Part shown: in pieces, positions 3,251-40,598 of the stretch
Layout of the letters: the number at the start of each line of letters is the position of its first letter
How positions within the stretch are numbered: the first letter of the stretch is position 1
DNA from: Deltaproteobacteria bacterium
GTDB taxonomy: Bacteria > Desulfobacterota > GWC2-55-46 > UBA9637
DNA length: 64,000 nucleotides
NCBI GenBank assembly: GCA_016214995.1
Contig: JACRML010000027.1
Location: 1,766-65,765, forward strand
Direction: 5' to 3'
Translations under genes and position numbers: made by a program
Notes under the pieces: generated by a model
Seen by the model: the letters and a program-made list of their open reading frames with translations, nothing else
Told to the model about the DNA's origin: nothing
Databases searched by the model: none

Positions 3251-3312
3251 AAATTTAAAACAATTATGAATTAAGAATTAAATTCCTAATTCGTAATCCC
3301 TAATTTTTAATG

Positions 3313-4641: not shown

Positions 4642-4697
4642 TGGAATCCTCGTTCAAATAAAAATAAATTTCTAATTCGTTCACTAAAAATTTCCAA

Positions 4698-6041
4698 TTA
4701 CTTCCCCATCTCCTCCAACAGAATCCCCACTCGTTTCTTTAATTCCAGGATTGCAATCTGTAAATCATATTGTGCATTTGTAAGACCTCGCTGGCTTGAG
4801 ACCAGGGTTGCATTTGCATCAATCACATCAACATTTGTTGCAAGGCCATAGCTGAATTGCTTAAAAACCATATTATAATTCTCTTCTGCAAAAGACATCT
4901 GCCTTTTATACGATTCTATAATGGGATTAAATGCCTCAAGGTTATGAAAAGTCTCCCTTACCTCCAGTTCAATGTCCTTTCTCATTCTTACTCTCTTAAA
5001 TTCAGCCTGCCTTTTTTTACTCTTTGCCTCATTCAGTTCAGCCTTTCTTAAACCGCCTTCAAATATAGGAAAGGTAAAGGTAATTCCTGCATACATACTT
5101 TCTGCATTAAAAAGCGTTGATTTTGGATTCTGATCCCTGTTTGAATACACGCCTTCCAGCTTAAGGCTCGGCAGGAAGTTTCCAACAGCATATTTGACCG
5201 CCTCGTCGGCAATGTCTTCGCCTATTTTACTTTGGATATAATCCTGCCTTTTCTCCAGAGAAAGCGATATCAATCTGTCCAGACCGGCATCTGGGATAGG
5301 TTGAATATCAGGCTCGGCAACCTTAAATTGCTCGGACATACCTATAAAGCGCGCCAGCTTATCTTTCGCCACTAAAAGGTCTTTCTTTGCATTGGCAAGT
5401 TCTGTTTCTGCGCCTGCCACCTCTGCTTCTGCTCGCAACAATATAGCCTTTGTAACCTCTCCAACTTGAAATCTTGCGCTGGCCACCCTCCTCTGCTCTA
5501 TTGCCCTTTTTAAGGCAGCCTCCTTTATTTCTACTGTCTTTTCTGATTTCAAAACAGTGTAATATATTTTTGAAACATTGAGCACAATATCTTCTTTCGC
5601 AGCATCAAGGCTGTATTTGCCTGCCTCTGTCTTTTTCCTGGCCTGCCTTAAGAGGCTCCATTCCTTGCCTCCTGAATAGAGAGGCTGGCTGAGTTTTATG
5701 CTAAAAGATGAGCTGTTGTCGGGTTGAATACTAGACGCTCCGGAGGTCTTGCTTTCAGAATATTCTGTATAATTGCTATCTACAGTAACAGTTGGCATCA
5801 CCTGAGAAATTGCCTTGTCAATCCCTACCTCTGCCTGATACAGGTCTTCCTGAGATAATATAACAGACTCATAGTTAGAAACCGCAAGGAGAGAGGCATC
5901 GGTAAGGGTAATGGTCTTTTCTTCGGCATGAACTACAGTGAACAGTGAACAGTACACGGTGAATAGCAATAAAATTTTTTTGAAATCTGAAATTTGCCCC
6001 CGATTGATTCTATCGGGGGTGAAATTTGAAATTTTATTCAT
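4698..6041 (-). CDS. TolC-family outer membrane efflux protein
   Basis: 447 aa with two OEP repeats. Overlaps the TetR stop by 4 nt. The signal-peptide core is encoded by a CAGTGAA heptamer array (5931-5967). Confidence 0.85.
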   Translation of the reverse strand: MNKISNFTPDRINRGQISDFKKILLLFTVYCSLFTVVHAEEKTITLTDASLLAVSNYESVILSQEDLYQAEVGIDKAISQVMPTVTVDSNYTEYSESKTSGASSIQPDNSSSFSIKLSQPLYSGGKEWSLLRQARKKTEAGKYSLDAAKEDIVLNVSKIYYTVLKSEKTVEIKEAALKRAIEQRRVASARFQVGEVTKAILLRAEAEVAGAETELANAKKDLLVAKDKLARFIGMSEQFKVAEPDIQPIPDAGLDRLISLSLEKRQDYIQSKIGEDIADEAVKYAVGNFLPSLKLEGVYSNRDQNPKSTLFNAESMYAGITFTFPIFEGGLRKAELNEAKSKKRQAEFKRVRMRKDIELEVRETFHNLEAFNPIIESYKRQMSFAEENYNMVFKQFSYGLATNVDVIDANATLVSSQRGLTNAQYDLQIAILELKKRVGILLEEMGK

Positions 6042-6652
6042 ACCTGTCTCCTCTCCATACCCTCAAAAAATATATTCACAAATACATCTATCACTTTTTT
6101 TACAGGCATCTTGAAAAATTTTTTCATACCATAAACCTCCTGCATCATGGTGTAGTGAAGAATCATAGCGAGGAACGCCCTCGCCGCCAGATGTGCATTT
6201 ACATTCTTGAATCTCCCATCCTTTGTAAGGTTGTTGATATATTTTGCCAGATAATCCAGTATTTCCAATCCTCGTGTCTTTATAAATATGTCAGAGAGCT
6301 TATGTCCCTCTAATGCACTGAACATAAGCAGCTTCATAAAAGTTGGGTCTTCAAGATGCTTTTGTATAAGGAAGGAGGCTATCTCTCTAAAAACATCCCT
6401 CCCTTCTTTGTTTTCCAGCCTTTTCATTAAGATGGATTGCCCCAGCTTGTCATTGCACTGCATGTCAATTATAGCGGAATAGAGTTTTTCTTTTTTGGCA
6501 AAATGCTTAAAGATAATTGCCTCACTAATCCCGGCATGCTGTGCTATTTCCCTCGTTGTGGTGCCCTTGAAGCCTTTTTGGGAAAAAAGCCTCATGGCAA
6601 CCTTAACAATCTGGGCATATCTTTCTTCTGCTGTCAATCTCTTTTTGGCCAT
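6038..6652 (-). CDS. TetR/AcrR family transcriptional regulator
   Basis: HTH FSQKGFKGTTTREIAQHAGISEAIIFKHF. Start taken at MAKKRLTAEERY (ATG 6652). Confidence 0.9.
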   Translation of the reverse strand: MAKKRLTAEERYAQIVKVAMRLFSQKGFKGTTTREIAQHAGISEAIIFKHFAKKEKLYSAIIDMQCNDKLGQSILMKRLENKEGRDVFREIASFLIQKHLEDPTFMKLLMFSALEGHKLSDIFIKTRGLEILDYLAKYINNLTKDGRFKNVNAHLAARAFLAMILHYTMMQEVYGMKKFFKMPVKKVIDVFVNIFFEGMERRQV

Positions 6653-6872
6653 TTTGCACACACCTTTTACGGCTGAATTCAGGCAATGCATCTGCATTTT
6701 CTGATACGGTCAGCCCCATGAGAAATGCCCTTCATGAAAACCTAAGAAAATAACCAAGAGTGCAATTCCGAAGGGTAGATTTCTGATTGGGTTAGTGAGT
6801 GCTTACTTTATACCAAGATTTAGAGCTTGTCAAGTGTTGACTGCCGCTGATTGCTTTGATACAATCCCTTTC

Positions 6873-7817
6873 ATGGAAACTTTTCTCACTGATACTCCGA
6901 CCAAGATTAGCTCGTTACAGAAAAATCTGGAAAAGATAATCAAAGGAAAACCGCAAATCATCAAGCAGGCAATAACAGCCCTTATTGCAAGAGGGCATCT
7001 GCTTATAGAAGATATACCTGGGGTTGGCAAGACAACCCTGGCCCATGGGCTAGCGAGGTCGATAAACTGCACCTTCCAGAGGATTCAGTTTACCAGCGAT
7101 CTCCTCCCCTCTGATATAATTGGCGTTACCATTTATAATCAGGAAAGACATGGGTTTGAGTTTAAACCAGGCCCTATATTTGCCAACATTATCCTGGCGG
7201 ACGAGATAAACCGCACCACACCAAAAACGCAGAGCTCACTGCTTGAGGCAATGAACGACAGGCAAGTATCTGTCGATAAGATAACCCATCCCCTGCCGGA
7301 GCCTTTTATGGTGATTGCCACACAAAATTCATTGGAATATGTAGGGACATACCCGTTGCCAGAATCCCAGCTGGACAGGTTTATGATGAGGATAAGGATT
7401 GGCTATCCGGAGGCAGCGGCTGAAAAGGAAATACTACTCTCATCTTCCACCGAACTTCAGCCTCAACGTCTTAATCCTGTTTTATCCACAGAGGAAGTAA
7501 TATACCTCCAAACGCTTGTAGATAAAATAAAAGTGGATGACGACCTGGTGGAATATATCCTGACAATTGCAGATGCTACAAGGAAATCCAGCATGTTGCG
7601 ATTGGGCGCAAGCCCCCGCGGAGCCATGATGTTGTATCGCGCTGCCCAGGCATTTGCCCTTGTAGAAGGCAGAGCATACTGCGTCCCTGATGACATAAAG
7701 AGGCTTTCTATATCTGTTTTAAGCCACAGGGTAGTCGCTATGCAAGGCATGGAAGAGGAAACAGATGTTGAAGGAATTATACAAGAAATAGTAGATGGGA
7801 TAGAAGTACCGTTATAG
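6873..7817 (+). CDS. MoxR-family AAA+ ATPase
   Basis: Walker A GVGKTT, Walker B ILADEINR, and the typical MoxR C-terminus. ATG at 6873 (METFLTD) preferred over the upstream GTG. Confidence 0.9.
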   Translation: METFLTDTPTKISSLQKNLEKIIKGKPQIIKQAITALIARGHLLIEDIPGVGKTTLAHGLARSINCTFQRIQFTSDLLPSDIIGVTIYNQERHGFEFKPGPIFANIILADEINRTTPKTQSSLLEAMNDRQVSVDKITHPLPEPFMVIATQNSLEYVGTYPLPESQLDRFMMRIRIGYPEAAAEKEILLSSSTELQPQRLNPVLSTEEVIYLQTLVDKIKVDDDLVEYILTIADATRKSSMLRLGASPRGAMMLYRAAQAFALVEGRAYCVPDDIKRLSISVLSHRVVAMQGMEEETDVEGIIQEIVDGIEVPL

Positions 7818-7886
7818 GCGCGTAGCTGATAGCTGATAGTTGATAGCTGTTAATTTTTTACTGTGAGCTATGAACTATGAGCTATT
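7818..7886. repeat. Degenerate heptamer-array hairpin (TAGCTGA / GAGCTAT units)
   Basis: tagctga tagctga tagttga tagctgt ... gagctat gaactat gagctat. The right arm contains the DUF58 start codon. Confidence 0.7.
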
Positions 7887-8962
7887 TATCCGCACCATTG
7901 CCTTGGCTTACTGCGGCTGCCAACCTGCTGACCAGACAAAAGCAAATCAGCAAAAAGAAAATAGGTTTATTTGTCCTGCCAAGAACGCTCTCATTTACAA
8001 AAGAAGGAAAAAGGTTTATTGCAATCCTTTTTGTCATTGGTATAGCCGCCATCAATACAGGAAATAATCTCCTCTATCTTATTGTAGCAATGATGCTGTC
8101 CATTATAGTTATATCAGGGATACTTTCAGAATCTACATTAAGAGGCGTGGAGGTATGCAGAATATTACCAAGACATATATTCGCAGGAACTCCGGTAATA
8201 GTGAAATGGAACATTTCAAATAAAAAGAGGATTTTCCCGTCATTCTCTCTTGTAATAGACGAAGCCCTTCCCAATAAACTTACAGCAGAATCAGGTTATA
8301 TCCTGAAATTGCCTGCACGCACCACTCTTGCACAAATACGGCCGTATATATTCCATAAAAGAGGGCTGTATAAACTGGAAGGATTTAAAACAAAAACCAG
8401 TTTCCCATTCGGTTTTTTTCTAAAAGGAAGAAGACTGGATATGCCGGAAGATGCGCTGGTATATCCGAATATAAGACCCACGAAGCAAATAGCCGCAGTA
8501 AAATTTTCAAAAAGCGGGGAATTACCTGAAAAGATAAAAGGCTACGGAACACACCTTTACAGCCTCAGGGATTATACGCTTATGGATGATGCAAGAGTTA
8601 TCCATTGGAAGTCAACAGCAAAAACTACAAAATTAATGGCAAAAGAATTTGAACAAGAGGGAAATAAAAAGGTGAAGATTATCTTTTATAATACACTCAC
8701 TGAATCCACATCCCTCCCCGCTAATAAAGAGGAAACCATCAGCGGTTTAAAAGATGAGTTTGAAGAGAAGGTAGAGGAAGCTGCCAGCCTGGCCAATTAT
8801 TTTATAACTTCCGGTTTTGAGGTTGGTTTTAAAAGTCTGACCACAGAATTGCCATGCAGGTCAGGTAAAGAACAGCTTTACAGGATACTAAGAGAGCTTG
8901 CACTAATAGAGCCTGCTGCAGGCAGTAAAAATATGCCTCTGACTGTGGTTGTAAGCAAATAA
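7877..8962 (+). CDS. DUF58 (vWA-like) domain protein
   Basis: Two N-terminal TM segments and a LRDYTLMDDARVIHWKSTAKTTKLMAKEFEQE motif typical of DUF58. Classic partner of MoxR. Confidence 0.8.
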   Translation: MSYLSAPLPWLTAAANLLTRQKQISKKKIGLFVLPRTLSFTKEGKRFIAILFVIGIAAINTGNNLLYLIVAMMLSIIVISGILSESTLRGVEVCRILPRHIFAGTPVIVKWNISNKKRIFPSFSLVIDEALPNKLTAESGYILKLPARTTLAQIRPYIFHKRGLYKLEGFKTKTSFPFGFFLKGRRLDMPEDALVYPNIRPTKQIAAVKFSKSGELPEKIKGYGTHLYSLRDYTLMDDARVIHWKSTAKTTKLMAKEFEQEGNKKVKIIFYNTLTESTSLPANKEETISGLKDEFEEKVEEAASLANYFITSGFEVGFKSLTTELPCRSGKEQLYRILRELALIEPAAGSKNMPLTVVVSK

Positions 8963-8967
8963 TGTCT

Positions 8968-9004
8968 GATTACACAGATTAGGTAGGAGTAAGATTACAC
9001 AGAT
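8968..9004. repeat. Two direct copies of the 12-mer GATTACACAGAT
   Basis: Copies at 8968-8979 and 8993-9004. Confidence 0.8.
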
Positions 9005-9104
9005 TTAAGCATGGTCATCAATCAGTATAACCCAAAAATAGACATTGATTTTTGGGTTATAATCACTCTCTTGATTTGTGTAATCATGCAAGGATTATAC
9101 ATCG

Positions 9105-11174
9105 ATGAGATTTTCTGCATACTTCATTCTAATCTCTTATCTTATGGCAGGCACAGGGCTTGTGGCAGTCAGCCTGACCAATATAATAAGCCCTGTCTTT
9201 CTTATAGCAACGGGTATTCTTATATCCTTAAGTTTTTTCTTAAGCATTCTTGGTAAGCCCATTAATATACAGCGGCTTGTTTGGAACAGCCTTGCAATAA
9301 TTATATTGGCAGCCGGCCTTATAGACTATCTTCTTATATCACTCTCACTTATAGATGCGTCAGTCCGTTTTCTCACCATATTAATGGTTGCCAAACTCTT
9401 TGACCTCAAGACAAACAGGGATTATGCCACATTATATCTGCTGACATTTTTCCAGCTTCTTGCAGCATCTGCATCAACAGTAAATCTTTCATTTTTATTT
9501 GCTCTGGCATTATACATTCTGACGGGCATATGGGCGCTTACAATATTTAATCTTAAAAGAGACTGGGAAGAAAAATCAGTTGCCCATAATGAGATAGCAA
9601 AGAATATTCTCGACCCATATTTTTTCATCGTAACCGCAGGGCTTGCGGCTTTATCCCTTATAATCACCCTCTCCCTATTCTTTGTCATACCAAGGATGGG
9701 CGTAGGATTTTTTCCAAAACAGACCGCTGATACCATAAAAATATCGGGTTTTTCAGAAAAGATAGATATTGGAGACCTTGGACCAATCAAGCTGGACCCT
9801 TCGATAGTTATGCGAGTAGAATTGTCTGGCTATAAAACCCCTGCCACGTCCCGCCTGTATTTCAGGGGAATATCATTTGACACTTACAATGGCGCACAGT
9901 GGCAGCAAACAATAAAAGAGTTGGTAGCATTGCATAAAAACAGCAAAGGCATATGGAATTTAAAATCCGAAATCCAAAATTCAAATTCTGAAATTATTAT
10001 ACAAACAATCCTTCTGGAGCCAATAGAAACAAATGTCATCTTTGCAGCATCCACAGGCATAGGAGTTTCCGGCAATTTTCAGAATATAGCTGCCGACAAG
10101 ATGGGTTCATTTTATCTGCCGGCCCCGTTTTATTCCAGAATTGAATACACTGCATATTCCTTGCTGCCGGCTCACCCTAAACCCATATTGCCGGAACAGA
10201 GTTATTATAAAGAGGTGCCTTTGCAGTATCTTCATATACCATCCGGCCTTGATAGAGTTTCTGTGCTTGTTAAAGGCATCACCTCGGGTAAAAAGACACC
10301 GCTTGATAAGGCAATTTCAATAGAGGAATATCTCAAAAAAAATTACCGCTACACACTAAGCCCAGGCATCCCAGATAGAAGCATTCGGAAACAGGAAGGC
10401 AAAAACCCGGTAGAAGATTTTATTTTTTATACAAAGGCAGGCTACTGCGAACAATATGCAACCACAATGGCAATCATGCTGCGAACCATAGGCATACCTA
10501 GCAGGATTGTGACAGGTTTTCTGCCGGGAGAGTGGAACAAATTTGGGAATTATTTCATCATACGCAACAGAGATGCGCATTCGTGGGTAGAGGCTTACAT
10601 GCCTGGCGCAGGCTGGACTACATTTGATCCAACACCTTCTGCTGACACAGTTGGGGCAATGCCGGCGGCAACGACCGCTATAGGCCTGTATATTGATACG
10701 CTGAAGTGGAAATGGAATAGATATATAGTAAATTATTCTTTCCAAGATCAGATGAATCTGGCAAAGACGGTAGAAGGTAAAGGCCGCTCCATGCTGTCAA
10801 AGTTACGAGGGAGTTTTAATACCAAAACCGTAGCCTCTAAGTGGAAAGATATGCTCCTATTGATAACAGCGGTGGTAATTGCAGCTATTATTCTTATAAC
10901 CATAAGAAGCTTGGTTTTGAGGGCAAAAGGCAAGACAAGATGGCCGAATACCCCGCTGTTTTATAAAGATATGTTAGTGCTTTTGGCAAAAAAGGGTAAG
11001 ACAAAAAAGACGGGTGAAACTGCACTGGAATTTGCTGACTCAGTAGCTATTGAAGGGGTTAAGGCTGCAACAGATATTTATTATAATATAAGATTTGGCG
11101 GGCATAAACCAACAGACGAGGAAAAGGCTCAGATATCGGCTTATTTAATTAGCATACGAAAGACGCTGCCATAG
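9105..11174 (+). CDS. Transglutaminase-like membrane protein (DUF3488 + transglutaminase core)
   Basis: Multi-TM N-terminus and Cys-His-Asp core GYCEQYATTMAIMLR ... RDAHSWVEAY ... WTTFDPTP. Confidence 0.85.
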   Translation: MRFSAYFILISYLMAGTGLVAVSLTNIISPVFLIATGILISLSFFLSILGKPINIQRLVWNSLAIIILAAGLIDYLLISLSLIDASVRFLTILMVAKLFDLKTNRDYATLYLLTFFQLLAASASTVNLSFLFALALYILTGIWALTIFNLKRDWEEKSVAHNEIAKNILDPYFFIVTAGLAALSLIITLSLFFVIPRMGVGFFPKQTADTIKISGFSEKIDIGDLGPIKLDPSIVMRVELSGYKTPATSRLYFRGISFDTYNGAQWQQTIKELVALHKNSKGIWNLKSEIQNSNSEIIIQTILLEPIETNVIFAASTGIGVSGNFQNIAADKMGSFYLPAPFYSRIEYTAYSLLPAHPKPILPEQSYYKEVPLQYLHIPSGLDRVSVLVKGITSGKKTPLDKAISIEEYLKKNYRYTLSPGIPDRSIRKQEGKNPVEDFIFYTKAGYCEQYATTMAIMLRTIGIPSRIVTGFLPGEWNKFGNYFIIRNRDAHSWVEAYMPGAGWTTFDPTPSADTVGAMPAATTAIGLYIDTLKWKWNRYIVNYSFQDQMNLAKTVEGKGRSMLSKLRGSFNTKTVASKWKDMLLLITAVVIAAIILITIRSLVLRAKGKTRWPNTPLFYKDMLVLLAKKGKTKKTGETALEFADSVAIEGVKAATDIYYNIRFGGHKPTDEEKAQISAYLISIRKTLP

Positions 11175-11264
11175 AAGAAATTTAAAGCTCTGGTGGGCTA
11201 CTTCCCGAAAAAGGAGACTATCAATGGACAGAAAGGATAATCTTCTCTATTGTGCAGTTCATTA

Positions 11265-11340
11265 TGGAGGCGGCGAGCGGATTTGAACCGCTGCATCGCA
11301 GTTTTGCAGACTGCTCCCTTAGCCACTTGGGTACGCCGCC
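11265..11340 (-). tRNA. tRNA-Cys (GCA), CCA encoded
   Basis: Minus strand GGCGGCG-TA-CCCAAGTGGCTAAGGGA-G-CAGT-CTGCAAA-ACTG-CGATGC-AGCGGTTCAAATCCGCT-CGCCGCC-TCCA. 7-bp acceptor stem, anticodon loop CU-GCA-AA, T-loop GTTCAAATC. Confidence 0.9.
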
Positions 11341-11482
11341 GTGATATTGTAGTAAACAGTATAATTACCCCACCTGTTATTTGTCAAGGCAAAAAGGATC
11401 TCTGTGCAAAAAAGATCTCTACTTGCATTGCTTAATATTCCAGCAAACCTTCCCTAATCTGCCAAACAAAAACTTGTGATAA

Positions 11483-12388
11483 TCAACCTAATTCCTCTAT
11501 ATATTTTTCTGCCATAAATGCAGCAATGGCGCCGTCTCCGACCGCCGTTGCTACCTGTTTGAGAGACGTTGTTCTGCAATCGCCTGCTGCAAATATACCT
11601 TTTACCGATGTCTGCATATTCTGGTCGGTCTTTATAAAACCCTGCTCATCTTTTTCAACGTCAACAAAATCGCTTGTCGGATTTATGCCGACAAAAACAA
11701 AAACCCCTTCCACATCAAGTTCTCTTACACTGTTATCCTTGAGATTCTGCAACACAACCTTCTCAACCACTGTCTTTCCTTTTATTCCCTTTAAGACATG
11801 GCTTAAGACCATCTCTATATTTGATGTGGAAAGGGCTTTCTCCTGTATTACCTTCTCAGCCCTGAGTTGGTCTCGCCTGTGGGCAAGATAGACCTTGCTT
11901 GCAATCTTGGACAGGTAGACTGCCTCTTTTACAGCAGTATCGCCGCCGCCGACAACCAAAACCTGCTGTCCTTTAAAAAATGGGCCGTCGCAGGTTGCGC
12001 AGTAGGAAACACCCTTGCCTGTAAATTCTTTCTCTCCGGGAACACCCAATCTTTTTGGTTTTGCACCGGTAGCTACAATTACTGCCTTTGTTGTTAAATC
12101 CCCTTCAGAAGTTTTGATAATCTTTTGTTTGCCTTCATCTTGAATATCCGCAACATCTGCCAGTTTTATCTCAAGCCCAAAACCTCTTGCCTGCTGTTCA
12201 AACTTTTCCATAAGGCCGGCACCGCTTATTGATGGAAAACCAGGGTAATTTTCTATAACATCGCTGACAGCAATCTGACCACCCACCACTTCCTTTTCTA
12301 AAAGAAGTGTTTTAAGCCTTGCCCTCTGGGCATAAATGCCTGCGGTAAGTCCTGCAGGACCTCCGCCGATGATGATGAGATCATACAT
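11483..12388 (-). CDS. trxB: Thioredoxin-disulfide reductase
   Basis: MYDLIIIGGGPAGLTAG FAD motif, redox-active CATCDG, NADPH motif VVGGGDTA. Start at ATG 12388. Confidence 0.92.
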   Translation of the reverse strand: MYDLIIIGGGPAGLTAGIYAQRARLKTLLLEKEVVGGQIAVSDVIENYPGFPSISGAGLMEKFEQQARGFGLEIKLADVADIQDEGKQKIIKTSEGDLTTKAVIVATGAKPKRLGVPGEKEFTGKGVSYCATCDGPFFKGQQVLVVGGGDTAVKEAVYLSKIASKVYLAHRRDQLRAEKVIQEKALSTSNIEMVLSHVLKGIKGKTVVEKVVLQNLKDNSVRELDVEGVFVFVGINPTSDFVDVEKDEQGFIKTDQNMQTSVKGIFAAGDCRTTSLKQVATAVGDGAIAAFMAEKYIEELG

Positions 12389-12539: not shown

Positions 12540-13991
12540 TCATCCTTTCCAAAATATCGGAGTAAATAAAATCAAAAGTGTATATATCTCAAGCCTGCCA
12601 AGAAGCATGCAGAATATAAGAAGCCACTTGCCGATATAAGGGATCTCGCTGAAATTTGAAAGCGGACCGATAACCCCAAGGCCTGGCCCTACGCCGCCCA
12701 TTGTTGTAGCAACTGAGGAAATAGCGCTGACTATATCAAGCCCCAGAAATGTCATTGCCAGAGAAACCACAAAAAAGATAACAATATACAAAAATGTAAA
12801 ACCAATTGCGCCTGTCATAACCTCAGTAGGAACAACCCTGTCGCCAAGCTTTATCGGTATAACGGCATGAGGATGTATAAGGTGGCGAAGCTCTTTATAT
12901 CCTTGTTTAAGCAATAACATAATTCTTAAGCATTTTATAGCCCCCGTTGTTGAGCCTGTTGAACCACCAATGAGCATCAATACAACGAGAATAAGCTGTG
13001 AGAAAGAAGGCCACTTTGCAAAGTCAGTAGATGAAAAACCAGTGCATGTTCCTATGGAAACAACCTGAAATGACGCATATCTGAAAGATGAAATAATATT
13101 ATCATAAAATGAAAAACGGAGATTAACTGTAACAAGGAATATGGCAAGCAGTTGCAAACCAAAATAAAAACGAAATTCGGAATTCCGCCAGTATATCTTT
13201 GGCCCATGTTTCAAGATGTTTGTATGCAATGCAAAATTTGTTGCAGAGAGAAACATAAATATCGTGATAATAAATTCAATGAGCGGGCTGCGATAATATT
13301 CAACGCTTATGTCTTTATTGGAGAATCCGCCTGTTGCAACAGTGCCAAACGCATGTATAACTGCGTCAAAAGGCCCCATGCCTGCCAATATAAAGGCAGT
13401 CATTCCTGTGACGGTAATTCCAATATAAACCAGGCCGAACAGCTTAACAGTTTCAATAAGCCGCGGTGCCAGCTTATCGGAAGAAACCCCCACGCCCGTG
13501 GCCTCTGCCCTGTAAAGCTGCATCCCTCCTATCCCAAGTATCGGCAATATGGCTATAGATAAAAGGATTATTCCCATGCCCCCAATCCAGTGTGTTAAAC
13601 TTCTCCATAAGAGTATGCCATGCGGCAGATTTTCTACAGATGTAAAAACAGAGGCGCCTGTTGTTGTAAAACCTGATATGGACTCAAAATAGGCATCTAC
13701 GAAATTAAGCAGTGTCCCTGAAAAAAGATATGGCAACGCCCCAAATAAACCGGCGCTCATCCATGCAATTGCGGTTATGGCAAAACCCTCTCTGTGCGAA
13801 ACGTCTATCCGCTGTCCTTTAAAGAGCATGAATAAAACACCGCCAATGCCTGAAGTTAATATGGCTGATGACAATAGGGCTATTACCGCCGGCTCTCTAT
13901 ACGCAAGAGATATTGCAGCAGGAACCAGCATGGAAGAGCCAAGAACTATGCCCAATATCCCAAGAAGATACAAAATTACTTTGACTCTCAT
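12540..13991 (-). CDS. trkH: TrkH-family potassium uptake protein
   Basis: 483 aa polytopic protein with repeated selectivity-filter-like GFTTTG/ATGGFS/GSTGSTTGA/TMGGVGPG motifs. Adjacent to trkA. Confidence 0.9.
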   Translation of the reverse strand: MRVKVILYLLGILGIVLGSSMLVPAAISLAYREPAVIALLSSAILTSGIGGVLFMLFKGQRIDVSHREGFAITAIAWMSAGLFGALPYLFSGTLLNFVDAYFESISGFTTTGASVFTSVENLPHGILLWRSLTHWIGGMGIILLSIAILPILGIGGMQLYRAEATGVGVSSDKLAPRLIETVKLFGLVYIGITVTGMTAFILAGMGPFDAVIHAFGTVATGGFSNKDISVEYYRSPLIEFIITIFMFLSATNFALHTNILKHGPKIYWRNSEFRFYFGLQLLAIFLVTVNLRFSFYDNIISSFRYASFQVVSIGTCTGFSSTDFAKWPSFSQLILVVLMLIGGSTGSTTGAIKCLRIMLLLKQGYKELRHLIHPHAVIPIKLGDRVVPTEVMTGAIGFTFLYIVIFFVVSLAMTFLGLDIVSAISSVATTMGGVGPGLGVIGPLSNFSEIPYIGKWLLIFCMLLGRLEIYTLLILFTPIFWKG

Positions 13992-29838: not shown

Positions 29839-29888
29839 AAAAATAAATTTTAAATTCTAAGAGCTTGTTGAAAAACTCAACAATCTCT

Positions 29889-29971
29889 GATTACACAGAT
29901 AAAAAATCAGATTACACAGATTAAAACTCCTTGAAATATCTGTGTAATCATTTTTTATAATCTGTGTAATC
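29889..29971. repeat. GATTACACAGAT cruciform: two direct + two inverted copies
   Basis: Forward copies at 29889-29900 and 29910-29921; inverted copies (ATCTGTGTAATC) at 29938-29949 and 29960-29971. Confidence 0.85.
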
Positions 29972-30024
29972 AAGGCTGTTGGTGTCTTTTTCAGCAGCCC
30001 TTTTTTCATGTTAACTGTTAGGCA

Positions 30025-30642: not shown

Positions 30643-30724
30643 GATTACACAGATTTCAAAACATGATTACACAGATTAAAAAACAAATAATCTGTGTAAT
30701 CCGTATTCCATGATCAGCGTAATC
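30643..30724. repeat. GATTACACAGAT cluster: two direct, one inverted, one degenerate inverted copy
   Basis: Forward at 30643-30654 and 30665-30676; inverted at 30690-30701; degenerate agcgtaatc at 30716-30724. Confidence 0.8.
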
Positions 30725-32974: not shown

Positions 32975-33093
32975 GAGAGAGGAAACAGGAAAGAGTTTCT
33001 CTCTTTTCTAATTCCTAATTTCTCTTTCCTGTTTTGCTATAACTTTGCATTTTCCAATTTACAATCTTCAATCTACAATTTTCAATCTACAAT
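32975..33093. repeat. Inverted repeat plus CAATCTA heptamer array
   Basis: aggaaacaggaaagag / ctctttcctgttt, then caatctt caatcta caatttt caatcta caat. The last units encode the C-terminus of the H/G-like protein. Confidence 0.65.
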
Positions 33094-33399
33094 ATGCCGC
33101 ACAACTATCTCAACAGCCTTTTCCTGCCTCTTCTCTACCCTCAGCCTTAATTCTTCAGCCTGTTTTTTTGCCTCTGCCTTTATAATATCAGCTTCTTTTT
33201 CAATCTTCTCCATCTCCTCTTTTTTATGCTCATGCAGCATCCTTTCAACCTGTTTTGACATGGATACCCTCATCTCTTCTGCCCTATGCAGTGCATCCTG
33301 TTTAATCTTCAGCGCCTTTTGCTTGGCCTCATTCAACAGGTTCTCCAGTTCATCTTCTTTTCGCTTCAAAGATTCTATGACGTCTGTTTCATTCATCAT
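33082..33399 (-). CDS. V-type ATPase peripheral-stalk subunit (H/G-like), K/E-rich coiled coil
   Basis: ~105 aa single charged helix immediately upstream of subunit I. Assignment rests on position and composition only. Confidence 0.5.
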
Positions 33400-33583
33400 C
33401 CTTCTCCCCTTGCTCCTCTTTGCTTTCTTGCTCAACCTCTACAGAATATTTTCCATCTGCCCATTTGCCCAGGTCAATAAGACTGCATCTTTCTGAACAG
33501 AATGGCCTGAAAGCATTCTCTTGCCATCCGGTTTCCTTGCCGCATACAGGGCATTTAATCTTTGTATTCATCATTTTGTGCAT
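33389..33583 (-). CDS. yacG: DNA gyrase inhibitor YacG (zinc finger)
   Basis: [33 protein letters not shown], the canonical YacG C4 motif followed by an acidic tail. Confidence 0.8.
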
Positions 33584-34920
33584 CAAAAATCAAGCGGACT
33601 TTTCACCTCTTTGACGGTCTGGCTCTTAATCGTATGAGTATATATCATGGTCGTCCTTACATCGCTGTGTCCCAGCATCTCCTGAATAGTGCGAATATCG
33701 TAATTGGCCTGCAAGAGATGCGTTGCAAAACTGTGGCGAAAGGTGTGTGACGACACCCTCTTCAATATCTTTGTCTTCCTCACAGCCCGCCGTATCGCCT
33801 TATTCACATGGGTTTCATGGAGATGATACCTCCTGTATTTGCCCTCATCGGGGACAAGGGTTAATGTCTTGGCCGGAAAGAACCACTGCCAGATCAACTC
33901 CCTCCCGATATTCTTATACTTCTTTTCAAGAAGTCCGTCAACAAACGCTCCCGCATAACCGGCATCGAGGTCTTTTTTATGCAGTTCCGTCACATCGGAG
34001 AGATGCTTCCTGATATCCGGAATGATAGACCTTGGAAGCGGCACAGTCCTGTCTTTCTTCCCCTTCCCGTCATGCACCGTCAATACCCCTGCATCCAAAT
34101 TAAAATTGTGCAGCCTGAGCTTCATGCACTCAAACAACCGGAGGCCGCAACCGTACAAAAGCCTGACCACAAGGTCATAAGGATAATTGAGGTTGGCTAT
34201 CACAGAATCCACTTCCTCCCGAGACAGCACAACAGGTATATATCTGGTTCGCCTGGCCCTCACATTATCGCTCTGGTCTCCGAAATCGGTCTTTAATACA
34301 TGCCTGTACAAAAACAAGAGTGCGTTAAAAGCCTGGTTTTGGGAAGAAGCTGATACGCGGCATTGCACAGCCAGAAAGCGTATGAACTCCTTTACATCGG
34401 ATGGATTCAAGTCAGAAGGTTTCTTGCTTTTTATAAAGGCTTGAAACTTTCTCACCCATGTAGAATATGATCTCAATGTCTTAGGGGAATAATGCCTTAC
34501 CTTAATCTCCGCAAACAGGTCTGAGTATGCCTTCTGCCAATCATACTCTATGCTCCCCTCCTTTTTAATATTCCTCTCGCCCATCATGAGTGAGGGGACT
34601 GTCCCAGATTTACCGGCGGAGTGACACGGAGCGGTAGAATTGGGACTGTCCCCGGCTTTGCTATCTTCCAGCATCTCATAATAAATAGCCACCGCCCTCG
34701 CCGCCTCCTCCTGCATCACAGTAGATTGATTCTTCTCATGCAATTTGATCATGAAGTGCTTAAGGGATTCCCTGTCAGCATACCTGTGACAGTATTTATG
34801 ACAGAAATCAAGATAGTACCTCAACCACTTCTTGTAGTTATTATGAAGGGAATTTGAAACCGATTTTTTATTCAGCAAGAGACTATATTTAGTAAATAAA
34901 GCAGCAGGGATATTTAGCAT
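33583..34920 (-). CDS. intI: Integron integrase (IntI-type tyrosine recombinase)
   Basis: Catalytic R (GCGLRLFE), [10 protein letters not shown] and MIYTH. IntI-specific extra segment [40 protein letters not shown] and C-terminal [13 protein letters not shown]...SPLD. An alternative start at M112 (34587) gives the usual ~334 aa. Confidence 0.85.
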
Positions 34921-35134
34921 GAATACTTATCCTATTTCTTAATATCACTCAAATTGTGGTGCTAACGGGTTAGAAATTATATTTATGATGATTATATATG
35001 TCAAGAAAAATGTTATTTTTTGCTTGACTATACCCTGTTTCTTGGTTAAATAGAGAAAACTTGTTAAATATATAGTTGGGCGGCAGGTGTGGGCAATCGT
35101 AGTTTGTATTCAATCGACCAATAGAGGAAACGAC

Positions 35135-35503
35135 ATGACGACTAGAGACATCATCCAAAACTACTTTGATAGCCTCAAACAGAAGAGTGGGTGGAAGGCC
35201 TTCTTGGCTGATGAAATGACGTTCACCAGCTTTGTTAGCCCGATTAAGCGGGTCGCGGGTAAAGGTGCGTACCTTGAAGCCACAAAGCGCTTCTTCTCCA
35301 TGATCACCGCAGTGGAGGTAAAAAACCTTATTGTGGATGGAGACAGAGCTTGCGCTTTGACCCGATACGAACTTCAGCCGCCTGGCGGCCCTGTCTTTGA
35401 CAGCCACGTCGCCGAAGTATTCGAGGTACGAGATGGAAAGATCGCGTCTCTTGACATCTACTTTGACAGCACGCCTTTCCCAAAGCCTCCGACTGCCGCC
35501 TAA
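35135..35503 (+). CDS. SnoaL/NTF2-like (ketosteroid-isomerase fold) protein, integron cassette 1
   Basis: GAGGAA-N5-ATG; MTTRDIIQNYFDSLKQK...FEVRDGKIASLDIYFD, typical SnoaL-like termini. The stop overlaps the R'' box of attC1. Visibly GC-richer than its surroundings. Confidence 0.7.
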   Translation: MTTRDIIQNYFDSLKQKSGWKAFLADEMTFTSFVSPIKRVAGKGAYLEATKRFFSMITAVEVKNLIVDGDRACALTRYELQPPGGPVFDSHVAEVFEVRDGKIASLDIYFDSTPFPKPPTAA

Positions 35504-35560
35504 CATGGCGTTCGAGAGGGACGCGCCAAAAGCGGCGCGCCCCTCAACTTTACGTTGGCA
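35498..35560 (+). other. attC-like recombination site 1 (63 nt)
   Basis: GCCTAAC-ATGGC-GTTCGAGAGGGACGCGCC-AAAAGC-GGCGCGCCCCTCAAC-TTTAC-GTTGGCA. R''/L''/L'/R' layout with unpaired bases, like classical 60-nt attC sites. Confidence 0.7.
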
Positions 35561-35575
35561 CTCCGCTTCGCGGAG

Positions 35576-35709
35576 TGCCAACGCCGCGCGTATCAATGTT
35601 CTGCTGGCTGGCCTCCGCTTCGCTACGGCCAACCAGCGGATCGAGCGGACTACAGCTACGGCGAGCTCGCTCGCCTTCGCTTCCGCCGCTCATCCGCGCG
35701 GCGTTATAC
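35576..35709 (+). other. attC-like recombination site 2 (134 nt)
   Basis: TGCCAAC-GCCGCGCG ... CGCGCGGC-GTTATAC, an 11-bp perfect basal stem AACGCCGCGCG/CGCGCGGCGTT. Internal stem CTGGCTGGCC/GGCCAACCAG. Confidence 0.55.
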
Positions 35710-35759
35710 ATTAAAAGACATCGGCAGATAACGATAAATTTCCAGCTCTTATTTATTTC

Positions 35760-35788
35760 TTGCCTATAAAAAATAGATTTTATACAAT
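35760..35788 (+). promoter_or_regulatory. Sigma70-like promoter inside cassette, predicted leaderless methyltransferase mRNA
   Basis: TTGCCT (35760-35765), 17-nt spacer, TACAAT (35783-35788). The ATG at 35795 lies 7 nt after the -10 and has no SD. Confidence 0.5.
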
Positions 35789-35794
35789 AATGCC

Positions 35795-36739
35795 ATGAAA
35801 GCATTAGAGACAATAAACCATCTTTTCAGAAAAGAAGAAATAAGCATCGGCAAAACATATCAAATTCAAGCCGAAAGCTCAGGTTTTAGACTACACTATC
35901 AACACCCGAACGGGAAACTTTATCAAGGAGACAGTATCGCTTGGCTAAATTCATTAGAAGACGAGAGTGTAGATTTAATATTTGCTGATCCCCCGTATAA
36001 CATCAATAAAGCAGAGTGGGATAATTTTGAGAGTCAAGAACATTATATAGAGTGGTCATTAAAATGGATTGAACCATCAGCCCGGATTTTAAAGCCGCAC
36101 GGCTCGTTATACGTCTGTGGATTTTCAGAGATATTGGCTGATCTCAAACATCCAACCTCAAAATATTTTAAATCATGTCGCTGGTTAATATGGCATTATA
36201 AGAACAAAGCAAATCTTGGAAACAACTGGGGACGCTCCCACGAAAGCATTATTCATTTTCGCAAATCTTCAAAAGGTAATCTGAACATAGATGATATTCG
36301 TATTCCTTACGGAGCACATACTTTAAAATATCCATCACACCCACAGGCTATAACCAGTCAGTACGGGAATGGCGAGCATCGAGAACATTGGAGGCCACAC
36401 CCAAGAGGCGCAAAACCCAAAGACGTTATAGACATTCCAACCACTTGCAATGGCATGGGAGAAAAAACACCTCATCCCACGCAAAAACCGGAAGAACTTG
36501 TACGTAAGTTTGTTCTGGCATCCTCCAATAAAGATGATATTGTTCTTGATCCTTTTTCAGGTTCAGGCACTACGCTTGTTGTAGCAGAACAGTTAAACCG
36601 TAACTGGTTAGGATGTGAAATAAACACAGAGTATAACGAATTGGCAATTGAACGGCTTGAATACGTTAGAAAAATGTCGGTAGAAGATTGGATCGAACAT
36701 GACAGAAAAGTTCAAGAGAGACGGGAGTCTATCAGGTGA
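35795..36739 (+). CDS. Type II DNA methyltransferase, beta-class (N6-adenine or N4-cytosine)
   Basis: Motif IV IFADPPYN precedes motif I LDPFSGSGTT (beta permutation). Confidence 0.9.
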   Translation: MKALETINHLFRKEEISIGKTYQIQAESSGFRLHYQHPNGKLYQGDSIAWLNSLEDESVDLIFADPPYNINKAEWDNFESQEHYIEWSLKWIEPSARILKPHGSLYVCGFSEILADLKHPTSKYFKSCRWLIWHYKNKANLGNNWGRSHESIIHFRKSSKGNLNIDDIRIPYGAHTLKYPSHPQAITSQYGNGEHREHWRPHPRGAKPKDVIDIPTTCNGMGEKTPHPTQKPEELVRKFVLASSNKDDIVLDPFSGSGTTLVVAEQLNRNWLGCEINTEYNELAIERLEYVRKMSVEDWIEHDRKVQERRESIR

Positions 36740-37653
36740 CATTATCAAAAATAGTCAAGATTGCATCAAATAAGGAAAAATTCTTAACTCTCAAAGATTA
36801 TATCGGATTTTGCAAGTCTTATTTAGAAGTTATTGCTGATGGACTTCAAGCGGTAATAATATCCCAGAACGAAAACCATTACCGTTTTTATCAGTATAAA
36901 AAGGACGGTCATTTCAACATTACGAGACCAATTAATTCAAATCTGATGTATGAATTTTCTGATGTCTCAACGATTGAAAAAGAGTTTTTGAAAATCCTCC
37001 ACTCGGTTAGAGACATTCCCGCAAATGATAAGCATAACCGCGAATTGATAAGACGAGGCATATACACTGTTCAACAATCAATCGGTGCAGCACTTGACGC
37101 TTTACCTGCTGGTGCATCGAACATAGCCAGAAAAGTTAATGGAGATCTTTTTGAGAGGTTTATCCAACTGTTGATTAAAGAAATAGGGGTCAAATGCAAG
37201 ACGGGGACTGTACAAGTTCCGGTATATCTCAACAATGAACTCCAGTTTCATATGAGTTATCAGCATGACCTTCTTCTATACAATAATGATGACTTGAAGG
37301 TTATAGGGTCAGTAAAAACTTCAAGCAAAGATAGAATTGACAAAATATTTCTAGATAAGTTTCTTTACTGTAAACTAACAAATACTATGCTCCCGCATAT
37401 CGCTATTTTCCTGAATGATGTGCAAAGAAAAAACAGCAAGCGGCAAGATGAATATGGAATTAATGCTACCTTCCTTCCCGGACATTTCAAAGCTTTTACA
37501 GTCAAATTAAACCCGCTTGATGGGGTCTATTATTGTGACATTAGACCGAATATGGAGACAGACGACCTCTTGAAAAAACATATACGAACAATAGACCACT
37601 TTTTTTGTTCCGATATTTGGTCTTTCATAGAGAGTTCAAGGCTTATAATTTAA
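36736..37653 (+). CDS. Putative type II restriction endonuclease (PD-(D/E)xK candidate)
   Basis: GTG start overlaps the methyltransferase stop (GTGA). Candidate catalytic block HDLLLYNNDDLKVIGSVKTSSKDR (D ... SxK ... DR) recalls Cfr10I/NgoMIV-type enzymes. No other family assignable. Confidence 0.6.
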   Translation: MTLSKIVKIASNKEKFLTLKDYIGFCKSYLEVIADGLQAVIISQNENHYRFYQYKKDGHFNITRPINSNLMYEFSDVSTIEKEFLKILHSVRDIPANDKHNRELIRRGIYTVQQSIGAALDALPAGASNIARKVNGDLFERFIQLLIKEIGVKCKTGTVQVPVYLNNELQFHMSYQHDLLLYNNDDLKVIGSVKTSSKDRIDKIFLDKFLYCKLTNTMLPHIAIFLNDVQRKNSKRQDEYGINATFLPGHFKAFTVKLNPLDGVYYCDIRPNMETDDLLKKHIRTIDHFFCSDIWSFIESSRLII

Positions 37654-37658
37654 GAAAT

Positions 37659-37791
37659 GTATAACAAGTCATTGGAGTGAACGAGTGCCACAGGACACTT
37701 TTTCAGTTGAGCAGAGCTTTAAGGTTTCCAAATCGTTTTCATGCTCTTTAACATTTTGCAGTGGCACTCGTCGCTCAATTTTACGTTAAAC
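37659..37791 (+). other. attC-like recombination site 3 (133 nt)
   Basis: GTATAAC-AAGTC-ATTGGAGTGAACGAGTGCCAC ... GTGGCACTCGTCGCTCAAT-TTTAC-GTTAAAC. R' fits GTTRRRY. R'' is the exact complement of the GTTATAC that opens this cassette. Confidence 0.7.
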
Positions 37792-37843
37792 ATAACCTCA
37801 TCCCAACACAACCCCTTGCCGTTCAGGCGCTTTCTGTTGACCT

Positions 37844-38939
37844 TTATTTTCCCCTCAAAAGGAATGCCTCCATAAACTCATCCAATTTTCCATCCAGCAC
37901 AGCATCTACATTTCCTGATTCAAAACCTGTTCTGTGGTCTTTGATTAAACGATACGGCTGCAGCACATAGGAGCGAATCTGACTCCCCCATGTTATCTCT
38001 TTTTTCTCCTTATGGAACTGATCCATTTTCTCTTCCTGTTCTTTGAGCTTTAATTCATAAAGCCTTGACCGCAGTATCTTCATGGCCAATGCCCTGTTTT
38101 TATGCTGACTTCTTTCAGCCTGGCATGCAACTATTATGCCGCTCGGCACATGCGTTATCCTCACGGCGGTTTCCACCTTGTTGACATTCTGACCGCCAGC
38201 TCCGCCTGACCTGAATGTGTCAACCTTTAAATCAGTATCTTTTACGTCCACTTCAATATCATCTTCAATTTCAGGATAGACAAACACAGATGCAAAGGAT
38301 GTGTGTCTCCGCTGGTTGGCATCAAACGGCGATATTCTGACAAGGCGATGCACGCCAACCTCTGCCTTAAGATAGCCATAGGCATACTCACCCTCTATGG
38401 TCAAGGTAACACTCTTTACCCCTGCCTCTTCTCCTGCCTGATAATCAACTACCTCTACCCTGTATCTGTTTTTTTCTGCCCATCTTGTATACATCCGCAG
38501 AAGTATCTCTGCCCAATCCTGGGCCTCCGTGCCGCCGGAACCTGGATGAATTGACAGAATGGCGCTGAGCCTGTCATGTTCTCCGCCGAGCATCCTCTGG
38601 ATATCCAGATGATGCATCCGTTTTTCTGTATCGGATAATTTGTCTTCTGCCTCTTTGGCTGTTCCGGGGCTCTGCTCCGAGACAGCAAGCTCCAAAAGCA
38701 CTGAGGCATCTTCAAGGTCTTTGCCAATGCTGTCAATTGAAGCAATCTCTGACTTTAAAGCCGCCTGTATTTTCAGCAGGTTTTGCGCCTCATGAGCCTT
38801 TTCCCATAGGGCAGGGTCTGCAACTAATTTCTCTAGCTCTCCCAGTCTTTTAGCCTTTGAATCCAAGTCAAAGATAACCTCGTATCTCAATCAATCTGTT
38901 TTGCAGCCCCTTCAGCCTCTCCTGAATCTCGTCAAACAT
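37844..38939 (-). CDS. prfB: Peptide chain release factor 2 (programmed +1 frameshift)
   Basis: ATG 38939 gives [23 protein letters not shown], then in-frame TGA at 38870-38868. The +1 frame continues [10 protein letters not shown]... with SPF and GGQ ([11 protein letters not shown]) motifs. Confidence 0.92.
38867..38873 (-). promoter_or_regulatory. RF2 autoregulatory +1 frameshift site CTT TGA C
   Basis: GAGGT TAT CTT TGA C on the minus strand: SD-like element, slippery CUU, UGA followed by C. Confidence 0.9.
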
Positions 38940-38954
38940 GTTTATTCCCCTCTT

Positions 38955-40598
38955 TTATTTATTTTTTGACCTATTTAAACCTAAAACCCATAACCCATAG
39001 CCTGCAACTATAATCATGCACCCGATTGCAAATATATCACCATATCTTGAATAGAATGTAAATTGGTTTATATCCTTTATTTTGATATATCCCGCCATGG
39101 CTTCTCTTGTAAATATATCGCTTTTCAATATAATTCTCCCGACAGGGTCAATCACCCCGCTTACGCCTGTATTCGCTGCCCTTATTAAGAATACCTTATT
39201 TTCCACAGCCCGAAATACCGCTTGAGAAAAGTGCTGATAGGGCGCCGATGTCCTGCCGAACCATGCATCGTTTGTTATATTTACAAGAAACCCCGCCCCC
39301 TCATTGATAAAACCCCTTGCAAGCTCTGGAAATATTGATTCAAAGCATATCAAGACCCCGAAACTATCGCCGTCCAATTCAAGCGGTTTAAGCCATTTTC
39401 CGGAGCTGAAATCTCCAACTCCTACAACAAGCTTATGTATAAACGGCAGATAATTTTTGAGCGGCACATATTCTCCAAACGGGACAAGATGGATTTTATC
39501 ATATTTCCCAACAAGCTCACCCTTTGGCGATATGAGAAAGGCGCTGTTATAATATTTTACTTCACCGTCAAAGCCTAGCCCGTATGCATCGTTGCCGGTA
39601 AAGAGGTAGGCATTGGCCTCCCTGGGCAAATTAAATACCTCAGGGCCTAACTCTTTATCAGATTGAAGATAGAATGGGATTGCTGTTTCAGGCCAGATAA
39701 TGAGCCTTACCCCTTGTTTTGCCAATGCCATGTTTAAATTTTTATAAATATCCACGGTCTCTTTTTTAAAAGATATATCCCATTTTCTGCCCTGGTCTAT
39801 ATTGCCCTGAGCAATGCCTATTTTTAAGGTTTTCCAATTTTGCGATATCTTGTCTGTCTCATATATTCTGAAAAAACCATAAATCAAAACAATAATTAAA
39901 ATGAAAGAAACAACAAACCCGCTTTTTAAGAAAGGTGAAAGCTGAAAGCTTACAGTTGATAGTTCTTTATCTTCTTTGAGCTTTGAGCTTTTAGCTTGTA
40001 TCGCAAGAAATATAAACATATTTACCATGACTATCAAAAAAGAAACGCCGTATACGCCTGTAATATCCGTTATCTGGATAATGGGAAGGAGTGAAGACTG
40101 GGAATAGCCTAAAAGAACCCATGGGAAGCCTATGGTAATCATGTTAGTCCTTATGTATTCCAGGCCAACCCATAATGACGAGGTAAACAAAACCTTTAAT
40201 AATAAATTTGTTTTTATGGATAATACAATTGAGGTGCCAAATCCAAAGGCAGCGAAGAAAAGGGCAAGATATAATACCAGCAAAAGGAGAACCAAAATAC
40301 TGGTGAAGAACGGAACACCTCCGTAATTAACCATTGAGTTCACCACCCAATAGACTGTGCCAAGAAAAAAGATAATGCCCCACAAAAGACCGAGTAAAAA
40401 CCCTCTTTTGCAAAATTTAGGCAAGGAAATTCCAGCGCCTTTCCTGACCCCCGCCCCCTGACTCCCGACTGCTGTATCACTAAGCGCAAAGAAAAATGGC
40501 ACCATCCCAACCCATGCAAAAAAACCAATATCAATGGGCGGGAATGCTGCAATAAGCATGGCCCCTGAAAGTATGCTCAGAAAAATAGTGCGCGTCAT
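38955..40598 (-). CDS. lnt: Apolipoprotein N-acyltransferase
   Basis: Multi-TM N-half and CN-hydrolase domain with IIWPETA, K and VLICFES catalytic motifs. Confidence 0.9.
   Translation of the reverse strand: MTRTIFLSILSGAMLIAAFPPIDIGFFAWVGMVPFFFALSDTAVGSQGAGVRKGAGISLPKFCKRGFLLGLLWGIIFFLGTVYWVVNSMVNYGGVPFFTSILVLLLLVLYLALFFAAFGFGTSIVLSIKTNLLLKVLFTSSLWVGLEYIRTNMITIGFPWVLLGYSQSSLLPIIQITDITGVYGVSFLIVMVNMFIFLAIQAKSSKLKEDKELSTVSFQLSPFLKSGFVVSFILIIVLIYGFFRIYETDKISQNWKTLKIGIAQGNIDQGRKWDISFKKETVDIYKNLNMALAKQGVRLIIWPETAIPFYLQSDKELGPEVFNLPREANAYLFTGNDAYGLGFDGEVKYYNSAFLISPKGELVGKYDKIHLVPFGEYVPLKNYLPFIHKLVVGVGDFSSGKWLKPLELDGDSFGVLICFESIFPELARGFINEGAGFLVNITNDAWFGRTSAPYQHFSQAVFRAVENKVFLIRAANTGVSGVIDPVGRIILKSDIFTREAMAGYIKIKDINQFTFYSRYGDIFAIGCMIIVAGYGLWVLGLNRSKNK

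Follow-up and report, generated by a model that had tools for sequence, protein, structure and literature searches.

What occupies the interval between yacG and prfB in a 64,000-nucleotide stretch of a Deltaproteobacteria bacterium genome (contig JACRML010000027.1; this whole stretch is hereafter called the window)? A first-pass annotation, made from the sequence alone, had proposed a chromosomal integron, with an integrase gene, two candidate attI crossovers and three attC sites. We find that the locus is very probably a complete, small chromosomal integron that an ancestor of the lineage acquired at a point between prfB and yacG, because the integrase passes an integron-specific model, a divergent attI could be fixed by comparison, and the three attC sites are unique in the window; integrase, attI and attC are all present and in the correct orientation, in line with the earlier proposal. 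It is an ordinary chromosomal integron of a known kind, its integrase is already named as such in NCBI, and surveys of metagenome-assembled genomes (MAGs), for example PMC9668308, already record integrons in this lineage. The platform consists of the following features:

~33583-37843, between yacG and prfB: chromosomal integron, made up of intI, attI and three cassettes
33583..34920, minus strand: intI, integron integrase of 445 aa (TIGR02249, PF00589, PF13495, PDB 2A3V)
34921..35081, plus strand: attI region, with the crossover in GTTGGGC 35075-35081, between G35075 and T35076
34962..34973, no strand assigned: palindrome CTAAC-GG-GTTAG, between the -10 hexamer of Pint and the intI start codon
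34976..35004, minus strand: promoter-like site facing intI (Pint), TTGACA-17-TATAAT, 12/12 matches to consensus
35045-35052 and 35063-35070: two GTTAAATA repeats in the attI region

The integrase, attI and attC sites

The minus-strand open reading frame at 33583..34920 exists as the first-pass annotation described it, with the motifs quoted there, SPLD among them. Its product scores 364.4 bits against the TIGR02249 'integron integrase' profile (cutoff 265) and contains the Pfam families Phage_integrase (PF00589) and Phage_int_SAM_4 (PF13495). Residues 139-442 correspond to residues 13-316 of VchIntIA from Vibrio cholerae (PDB 2A3V; E 3e-73) without large gaps, and the alignment covers the integron-specific insert LLEKKYKN...YRRYHLHE (VchIntIA residues ~190-250), so that the extra segment read earlier as an IntI hallmark is upheld by both the profile and the VchIntIA alignment. 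The catalytic motifs R (GLRLFE), K (GKGKKDR), HxxR (HTFRHS), H (GHSD) and Y (IYTH) are all present. When an AlphaFold model of the protein, in which the helical domains are good, parts of the catalytic domain are poor and the mean predicted local distance difference test (pLDDT) score is 70, was compared to known structures using Foldseek, the best structural match was again 2A3V (E 2e-20). The protein can be divided into an extra domain (residues 1-88), a disordered linker (89-122) and a canonical IntI part (~123-445). NCBI lists an identical protein (P0001), encoded on a 68 kb contig, under the name 'MAG: integron integrase [Deltaproteobacteria bacterium]', although a look-up by exact sequence gave no entry. 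In addition, the class-1-type equivalog model NF011946 is not passed (253 bits, cutoff 435).

The position of the attI crossover was determined from an alignment of eight loci (A1): the window, L085, L086, L087 and L089 (91% identical IntI), L001 (84%), L002 from Brocadia (82%), and L005. Conservation runs from the intI start to the GTT of GTTGGGC and then gives way to unrelated sequence in loci with other first cassettes, every locus having its own GTTRNNN at the point of divergence; because conservation ends at this GTT, the crossover is placed in GTTGGGC. Of the two crossovers suggested in the first-pass annotation, GTTGGGC near 35075 is therefore retained, and GTTAGAA near 34967 is rejected, as it lies inside the conserved palindrome, within a region kept in 7/7 intI-bearing loci and ~105 bp to the intI side of the divergence point. 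The sequence of Pint is kept in most of the A1 loci, including L005, which has lost intI, and the palindrome, in the form CTAAC-NN-GTTAG, is kept in 7/7 of the A1 loci that retain intI. This palindrome could serve as an operator or as an accessory site for IntI. No LexA box was recognised, and the LexA study PMC3108266 offers no motif that could be used for this lineage.

The attC sites were examined with two tools. The first, a geometric scanner, requires AAC, a 5-nt spacer, an L'' arm (where alone bulges are allowed), an L' arm, a second 5-nt spacer and GTT, and was applied to 80 metagenomic loci encoding relatives of the window integrase. On the cassette side and strand of the 80 intI genes, 57 hits were obtained in 168 kb; in the 294 kb that lie downstream of intI, one strand gave 5 hits and the other 3. 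This 20-fold enrichment (57 in 168 kb vs 5 in 294 kb) indicates that the scanner detects real attC sites with a low and known background. The second, covariance model R1, was built from an alignment of 31 short attC sites, all from loci other than the window, in which the L stem is rich in compensatory changes and carries a one-base bulge. R1 was run across all 64 kb with filters off and gave only three significant hits, all on the plus strand and 0.6-2.9 kb from intI; elsewhere in the 64 kb, on either strand, no R1 match was better than E 0.96. The three sites are:

35498-35560, plus strand: attC1, 63 nt, R'' GCCTAAC and R' GTTGGCA (R1 39.5 bits, E 2.5e-9; scanner score 12)
35627-35709, plus strand: attC2, 83 nt, R'' GGCCAAC and R' GTTATAC at 35703-35709 (R1 30.3 bits, E 1.6e-6)
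37659-37791, plus strand: attC3, 133 nt, R'' GTATAAC and R' GTTAAAC (R1 26.3 bits, E 2.7e-5; scanner score 13.5)

For attC1 and attC3, the scanner and R1 both recover exactly the coordinates that had been read by eye. The description of attC1 as a classical ~60-nt site with unpaired stem bases likewise agrees with its bottom-strand fold (z = -2.74) and with the R1 alignment: in the bottom strand, the bases left without a partner fall on the 3' ('') arm, and the L-box triplet is directly followed by an extra G, which is also a feature of classical attC sites. An unconstrained fold of attC1 leaves the R boxes unpaired, which is expected of a site with an unpaired spacer, and minimum free energy folds alone were therefore not used as a test.

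Two further scanner hits in the window, at 3242-3322 and 29875-29984, were rejected as attC sites, since R1 reports nothing below E 10 at these two places; from its background downstream of the 80 intI genes, where 588 kb of strand gave 8 hits, the scanner would be expected to yield ~1.7 off-array hits in the window, and these 2 were found. The hit at 29875-29984 is a GATTACACAGAT palindromic repeat. Members of this family of short repeats (8968-9085, 29889-29971, 30643-30701) are hairpins between genes, of which two fall within the V-ATPase operon, and the family counts 10 copies at <=1 mismatch where 0.33 would be expected.

For attC2, the right end at 35709 given in the first-pass annotation is supported by R1, and the left end, which had been placed at 35576, is not, since the R1 match starts at GGCCAAC 35627. 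Could the functional site nevertheless be the 134-nt element at 35576-35709, which would make cassette 2 almost wholly one long branched hairpin? Its TGCCAAC box (35576-35582) complements the cassette start GTTGGCA at 7/7 positions, as against 6/7 for GGCCAAC, a perfect 14-bp hairpin connects the R' box of attC1 with this TGCCAAC box, and the bottom strand of the longer form (35572-35713, 142 nt) takes the shape of a three-way junction with an 11-bp outer stem, at -43.8 kcal/mol (z = -5.05). That outer stem, however, offers neither an unpaired spacer nor an L box at canonical distance with an extrahelical base, and it is rejected by the scanner, whereas R1 aligns attC2 over its full length from 35627. 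We regard the longer site as somewhat unlikely and use the 83-nt attC2 in what follows.

With these results, the possibility can be weighed that the locus is a generic Xer-like or phage-like tyrosine-recombinase island whose palindromes are coincidental. The intI product does match the XerC, XerD and XerA models, but at 158-170 bits, under their cutoffs of 220-335, while the integron model passes its own cutoff. Moreover, both our attC model and the IntI-specific hidden Markov model TIGR02249 are positive, the three attC hits are found nowhere else in the window, and the attI junction is common to seven other integron loci, which together make an island of this kind extremely improbable.

Cassettes and the history of the prfB-yacG site

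The crossovers delimit three cassettes, arranged head to tail and each closed by an attC site, and a terminal segment, with the following contents:

35076..35554, plus strand: cassette 1, 479 bp, with a SnoaL-like open reading frame (PF12680 SnoaL_2, E 1.2e-11)
35555..35703, plus strand: cassette 2, 149 bp, an attC plus a 14-bp hairpin at its start, bounded by the R' boxes of attC1 and attC2
35704..37785, plus strand: cassette 3, 2082 bp, two genes predicted to form a type II restriction-modification system, preceded by a promoter-like site within the cassette
35760-35788, plus strand: promoter-like site of cassette 3, TTGCCT-17-TACAAT
35795-36739, plus strand: methyltransferase gene of cassette 3 (PF01555, E 1e-51; PADLOC MTase_II, 236 bits)
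36736-37653, plus strand: restriction endonuclease gene of cassette 3 (PADLOC REase_II PDLC03436, 346 bits, full length)
37786..37843, plus strand: array-end segment, from the last crossover to the prfB stop codon, common to loci L005 and L007

The open reading frame of cassette 1 has its listed start at GTG 35087 and most likely runs from ATG 35135 to 35503, so that its stop codon falls inside the R'' box. No credible open reading frame for cassette 2 is present in the open reading frame listing. In cassette 3, the methyltransferase and endonuclease genes overlap by 4 bp and the endonuclease weakly matches the type II enzyme in PDB 6EKR; as predicted from family matches, cassette 3 is a complete type II restriction-modification system. 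The cassettes also stand out from the host by their G+C content, which is 51-59% in cassettes 1-2, 33-43% in cassette 3 and ~40% in the host.

The start of each cassette is able to pair with an R'' box: TTGGGC of cassette 1 with its own GCCTAAC, with one G-T wobble; TTGGCA of cassette 2 with GGCCAAC at 6/7 or with TGCCAAC at 7/7; and TTATAC of cassette 3 with its own GTATAAC at 7/7. That the GTTATAC opening cassette 3 is the exact complement of the GTATAAC in its own attC had already been read correctly in the first-pass annotation. Such pairing is what one expects of cassettes that were once circular. Separately, the junction of attC1 and cassette 2 is spanned by the perfect 14-bp hairpin CGTTGGCACTCCGC-TTC-GCGGAGTGCCAACG (35553-35583), and cassette 2 in circular form would be almost wholly self-complementary.

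The two flanking genes, which the first-pass annotation had named, are confirmed by family matches:

33389..33586, minus strand: yacG, left flank (PF03884, E 6e-22), abutting intI in the same orientation and syntenic with relatives
37844..38939, minus strand: prfB, right flank (TIGR00020, 511 bits), with the +1 frameshift site CTTTGAC at 38873..38867

The frameshift site of prfB is of the classical programmed type, with an AGG-rich stretch before it (38867-38939, minus strand), and because of it the open reading frame finder lists only the 348-aa downstream part of the gene. At the other flank, intI ends in a TGA at 33585-33583 that shares a base with a possible start codon of yacG, an ATG at 33583-81; as intI points the same way as yacG and the V-ATPase operon, transcription from Pint may run on into these genes. 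Among the open reading frames between 28000 and 44000, and in the flanking regions that relatives have in common with the window, no transposon or plasmid genes were seen, and no Rfam family was found within 33000-39000 at E <= 0.1.

To place the insertion, prfB was used as an anchor against one genome per species, and the window proteins were then located in the returned loci. Three relatives (L008, L009 and L010; prfB 81-83% identical) show the gene order of the window (lnt, prfB, yacG, a gene for a 117-aa protein and the V-ATPase operon), with a gap between prfB and yacG of 100-170 bp, compared to ~4.26 kb in the window. In these three loci there was no hit to the window integrase, no attC hit and no match to the array-end segment. 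Thus, as the synteny comparison suggested in the first-pass annotation shows, prfB stands next to yacG in integron-free relatives, and the relatives without an integrase also lack the whole ~4.26 kb.

The closest relative (L005, 86%) presents a different state. The site holds 2.1 kb, with two ParE-type toxin-antitoxin pairs, an open reading frame of 183 aa and at least one attC hit; there is no intI, and the attI/Pint region is kept together with a 25-nt intI fragment (codons ~56-63). Window positions 37783-37836 match L005 positions 11684-11737 at 96% over 54 nt, a match that ends 2 nt past the R' box. In another relative (L007, 84%), positions 2300-2477 match window positions 37783-37961 at 88%; the same array-end segment is followed there by another attC and a different cassette. 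In both L005 and L007 the shared junction comes up to 2 nt or less from the crossover. Because this array-end junction is shared, we conclude that the integron entered the site in the common ancestor of the window, L005 and L007 genomes, and because different cassettes stand behind the same distal junction in the three, that cassettes were exchanged after the insertion. The location of the integron is chromosomal, between core genes, and the shared prfB-side junction points to inheritance within the lineage. These differing cassettes are the strongest indirect evidence that the platform was active in the past.

Several further observations were made in related loci. In L005, the Pint/attI remnant and the 25-nt 5' coding piece of the deleted intI lie directly upstream of yacG (12981-13170), and a ParE/antitoxin module lies between prfB and the array-end segment (11055-11694), with one copy of an 11-bp direct repeat, CAGAAAGCGTC, on either side (11055-11065; 11684-11694) and no canonical attC or GTT junction. 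In a more distant locus (L012, prfB 70%), three attC hits, and no intI hit, are found within 3688-9573, in the lnt-prfB interval at the opposite side of prfB; the neighbourhood of prfB may be a recurrent site in this clade for integrons or for CALIN, that is, attC clusters without an integrase in the sense of IntegronFinder. Two Brocadia assemblies with identical IntI (L002 and L003, 6730-7425) differ upstream of intI, one having two small open reading frames and the other a NERD-domain gene, which suggests cassette variation.

By analogy with VchIntIA and IntI1, the integrase would bind the folded bottom strand of attC, recognise the R and L boxes together with extrahelical bases, and cleave the R box inside its conserved AAC/GTT triplet, allowing circular cassettes to insert at attI or to leave between attC sites. 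The array has turned over since its insertion, two relatives holding the same distal junction with other cassettes and one of them having lost intI. To judge from family membership, the restriction-modification cassette most likely serves in phage defence and would incidentally, again most likely, be an addictive module that stabilises the array.

Some points weigh against a complete and working integron. Present-day activity of the integrase is not supported by any result, and L005 shows that the platform can decay. On the plus strand of 33300-35150, no cassette promoter (Pc) with >=9/12 matches was found, the sole candidate being a weak TTGACT-17-TAAATA at 35024-35052; with no sigma-70-like Pc found, expression of cassettes 1 and 2 is unexplained. 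Additionally, attC2 is atypical, having a 3' spacer of 8 nt and a competing outer stem with another R'' box, and R1 is not the model of IntegronFinder but a home-built one, trained on sites from our own filter, which attC1 and attC3 also pass.

In the extreme, the locus could be a structurally intact and functionally frozen relic of an insertion long ago, in which the cassettes have become fixed chromosomal genes and IntI is silent or is kept for another reason, for instance as the first gene of the yacG/V-ATPase unit. Such a state would fit the tiny array with its heterogeneous attC lengths, the failure to find a plus-strand Pc, the overlap of the intI stop codon with a possible yacG start codon, and the example of L005, where intI was deleted, the cassettes persist and a Pint remnant lies directly upstream of yacG. 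On the other hand, the intI open reading frame is uninterrupted and has every catalytic motif, Pint is a perfect consensus promoter, and the window, L005 and L007 carry different cassettes behind an identical distal junction; we judge a frozen relic unlikely. The preferred reading thus remains that of a complete chromosomal integron.

An additional N-terminal domain in the integrase

The part of IntI that precedes the canonical integrase was examined separately. In the AlphaFold model, residues 1-88 form a SAM-like four-helix domain (helices 6-18, 23-42, 50-62 and 67-88; pLDDT ~90), followed by a linker (~90-121) that is predicted to be disordered. The predicted structure of this domain mirrors that of the canonical SAM-like domain at residues 124-209, and the domain alone has a weak match to PF13495 (24.9 bits, E 2.6e-5). 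It is conserved in 30 full-length homologues, among which the linker varies in length and sequence. Among the best 120 homologues listed, nearly all span the whole protein, at about 420-620 aa; the sources of these long-form proteins include Brocadia, Scalindua, Nitrospirota and other deltaproteobacterial MAGs. When the N-terminal 90 aa were used as a query, 1638 cluster representatives were returned, and nearly all of the matches listed lie at the N terminus or within a few residues of it. Short proteins, which probably come from genes cut off at the end of a contig, make up most of the 1638 representatives, so that the search does not show whether the domain is present outside integrases. 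The literature that could be searched returned no account of integron integrases that are extended at the N terminus or have two SAM-like domains.

It is conceivable, though in our estimation quite unlikely, that the N-terminal domain and its variable, disordered linker are the mark of a large clade of 'long' integron integrases that has apparently not been described, in which the domain arose from the SAM-like core-binding domain by duplication and divergence and could be a second DNA-binding module. The idea of such a second module is reasonable in itself. By analogy, such a module could be likened to the arm-binding domain of lambda integrase, and the GTTAAATA repeats and the CTAAC-NN-GTTAG palindrome in attI may be candidate accessory sites for it. 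If this were true, binding by the N-terminal domain could add directionality or autoregulation to cassette recombination. The domain is the sole feature of this integron that could lead to something new.

Comparison with known integrons

The integron is well delimited and complete, it comes from an uncultured deltaproteobacterial lineage (the NCBI label; related MAGs are labelled Thermodesulfobacteriota), and its attI crossover, cassette bounds and insertion site were fixed by comparison. It leaves current understanding unchanged; its interest, which is modest, comes from the comparative series at the prfB-yacG site, the defence cassette with its two genes and the N-terminal domain of this integrase clade. 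The prfB-yacG site provides a series of empty (L008-L010), complete (window) and decayed, integrase-less (L005) states that could help in studying the gain, turnover and loss of small chromosomal integrons.

Among known systems, the Vibrio cholerae superintegron and its integrase VchIntIA share with the window the IntI insert, the catalytic motifs, a divergent attI, co-oriented cassettes, the R''-L''...L'-R' layout of attC and a chromosomal location. In contrast to that large array of tens of cassettes with near-identical repeats, the window has three cassettes with dissimilar attC sites (63, 83 and 133 nt, with little sequence identity) and so does not have a large array of the Vibrio type. 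It also differs in having no recognisable LexA box or Pc and in the ~122 extra N-terminal residues of its integrase, which comprise the second SAM-like four-helix domain and the linker.

Closer counterparts are the long-form integrases of Candidatus Brocadia, Scalindua, Nitrospirota and deltaproteobacterial MAGs (P0002-P0120), whose full-length identity, with the N-terminal domain counted in, is 51-91%. The attC consensus is the same, and the attI/Pint region can be aligned with those of L001, L002 and L085-L089. Genomic contexts and cassettes differ, with a NERD cassette in L085-L089 and DUF6883/DUF4926 beside intI in Brocadia, and the prfB-side junction is common only to the window, L005 and L007. 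The class 1 mobile integron (IntI1) shares the logic of the platform, and attC1 resembles the classical ~60-nt attC; unlike class 1 integrons, however, the window integrase misses the NF011946 cutoff, and the integron is flanked by core genes that are syntenic in relatives, with no Tn402/Tn21 or plasmid context. A CALIN resembles the L005 locus, whereas the window keeps an intact intI. Finally, defence cassettes have been described in sedentary chromosomal integrons (bioRxiv 10.1101/2024.07.02.601686) of another host phylum and integrase clade; like them, the window carries a compact anti-phage system, here predicted to be a two-gene type II restriction-modification system, and this cassette is in keeping with the recent idea that integrons store genes for phage defence.

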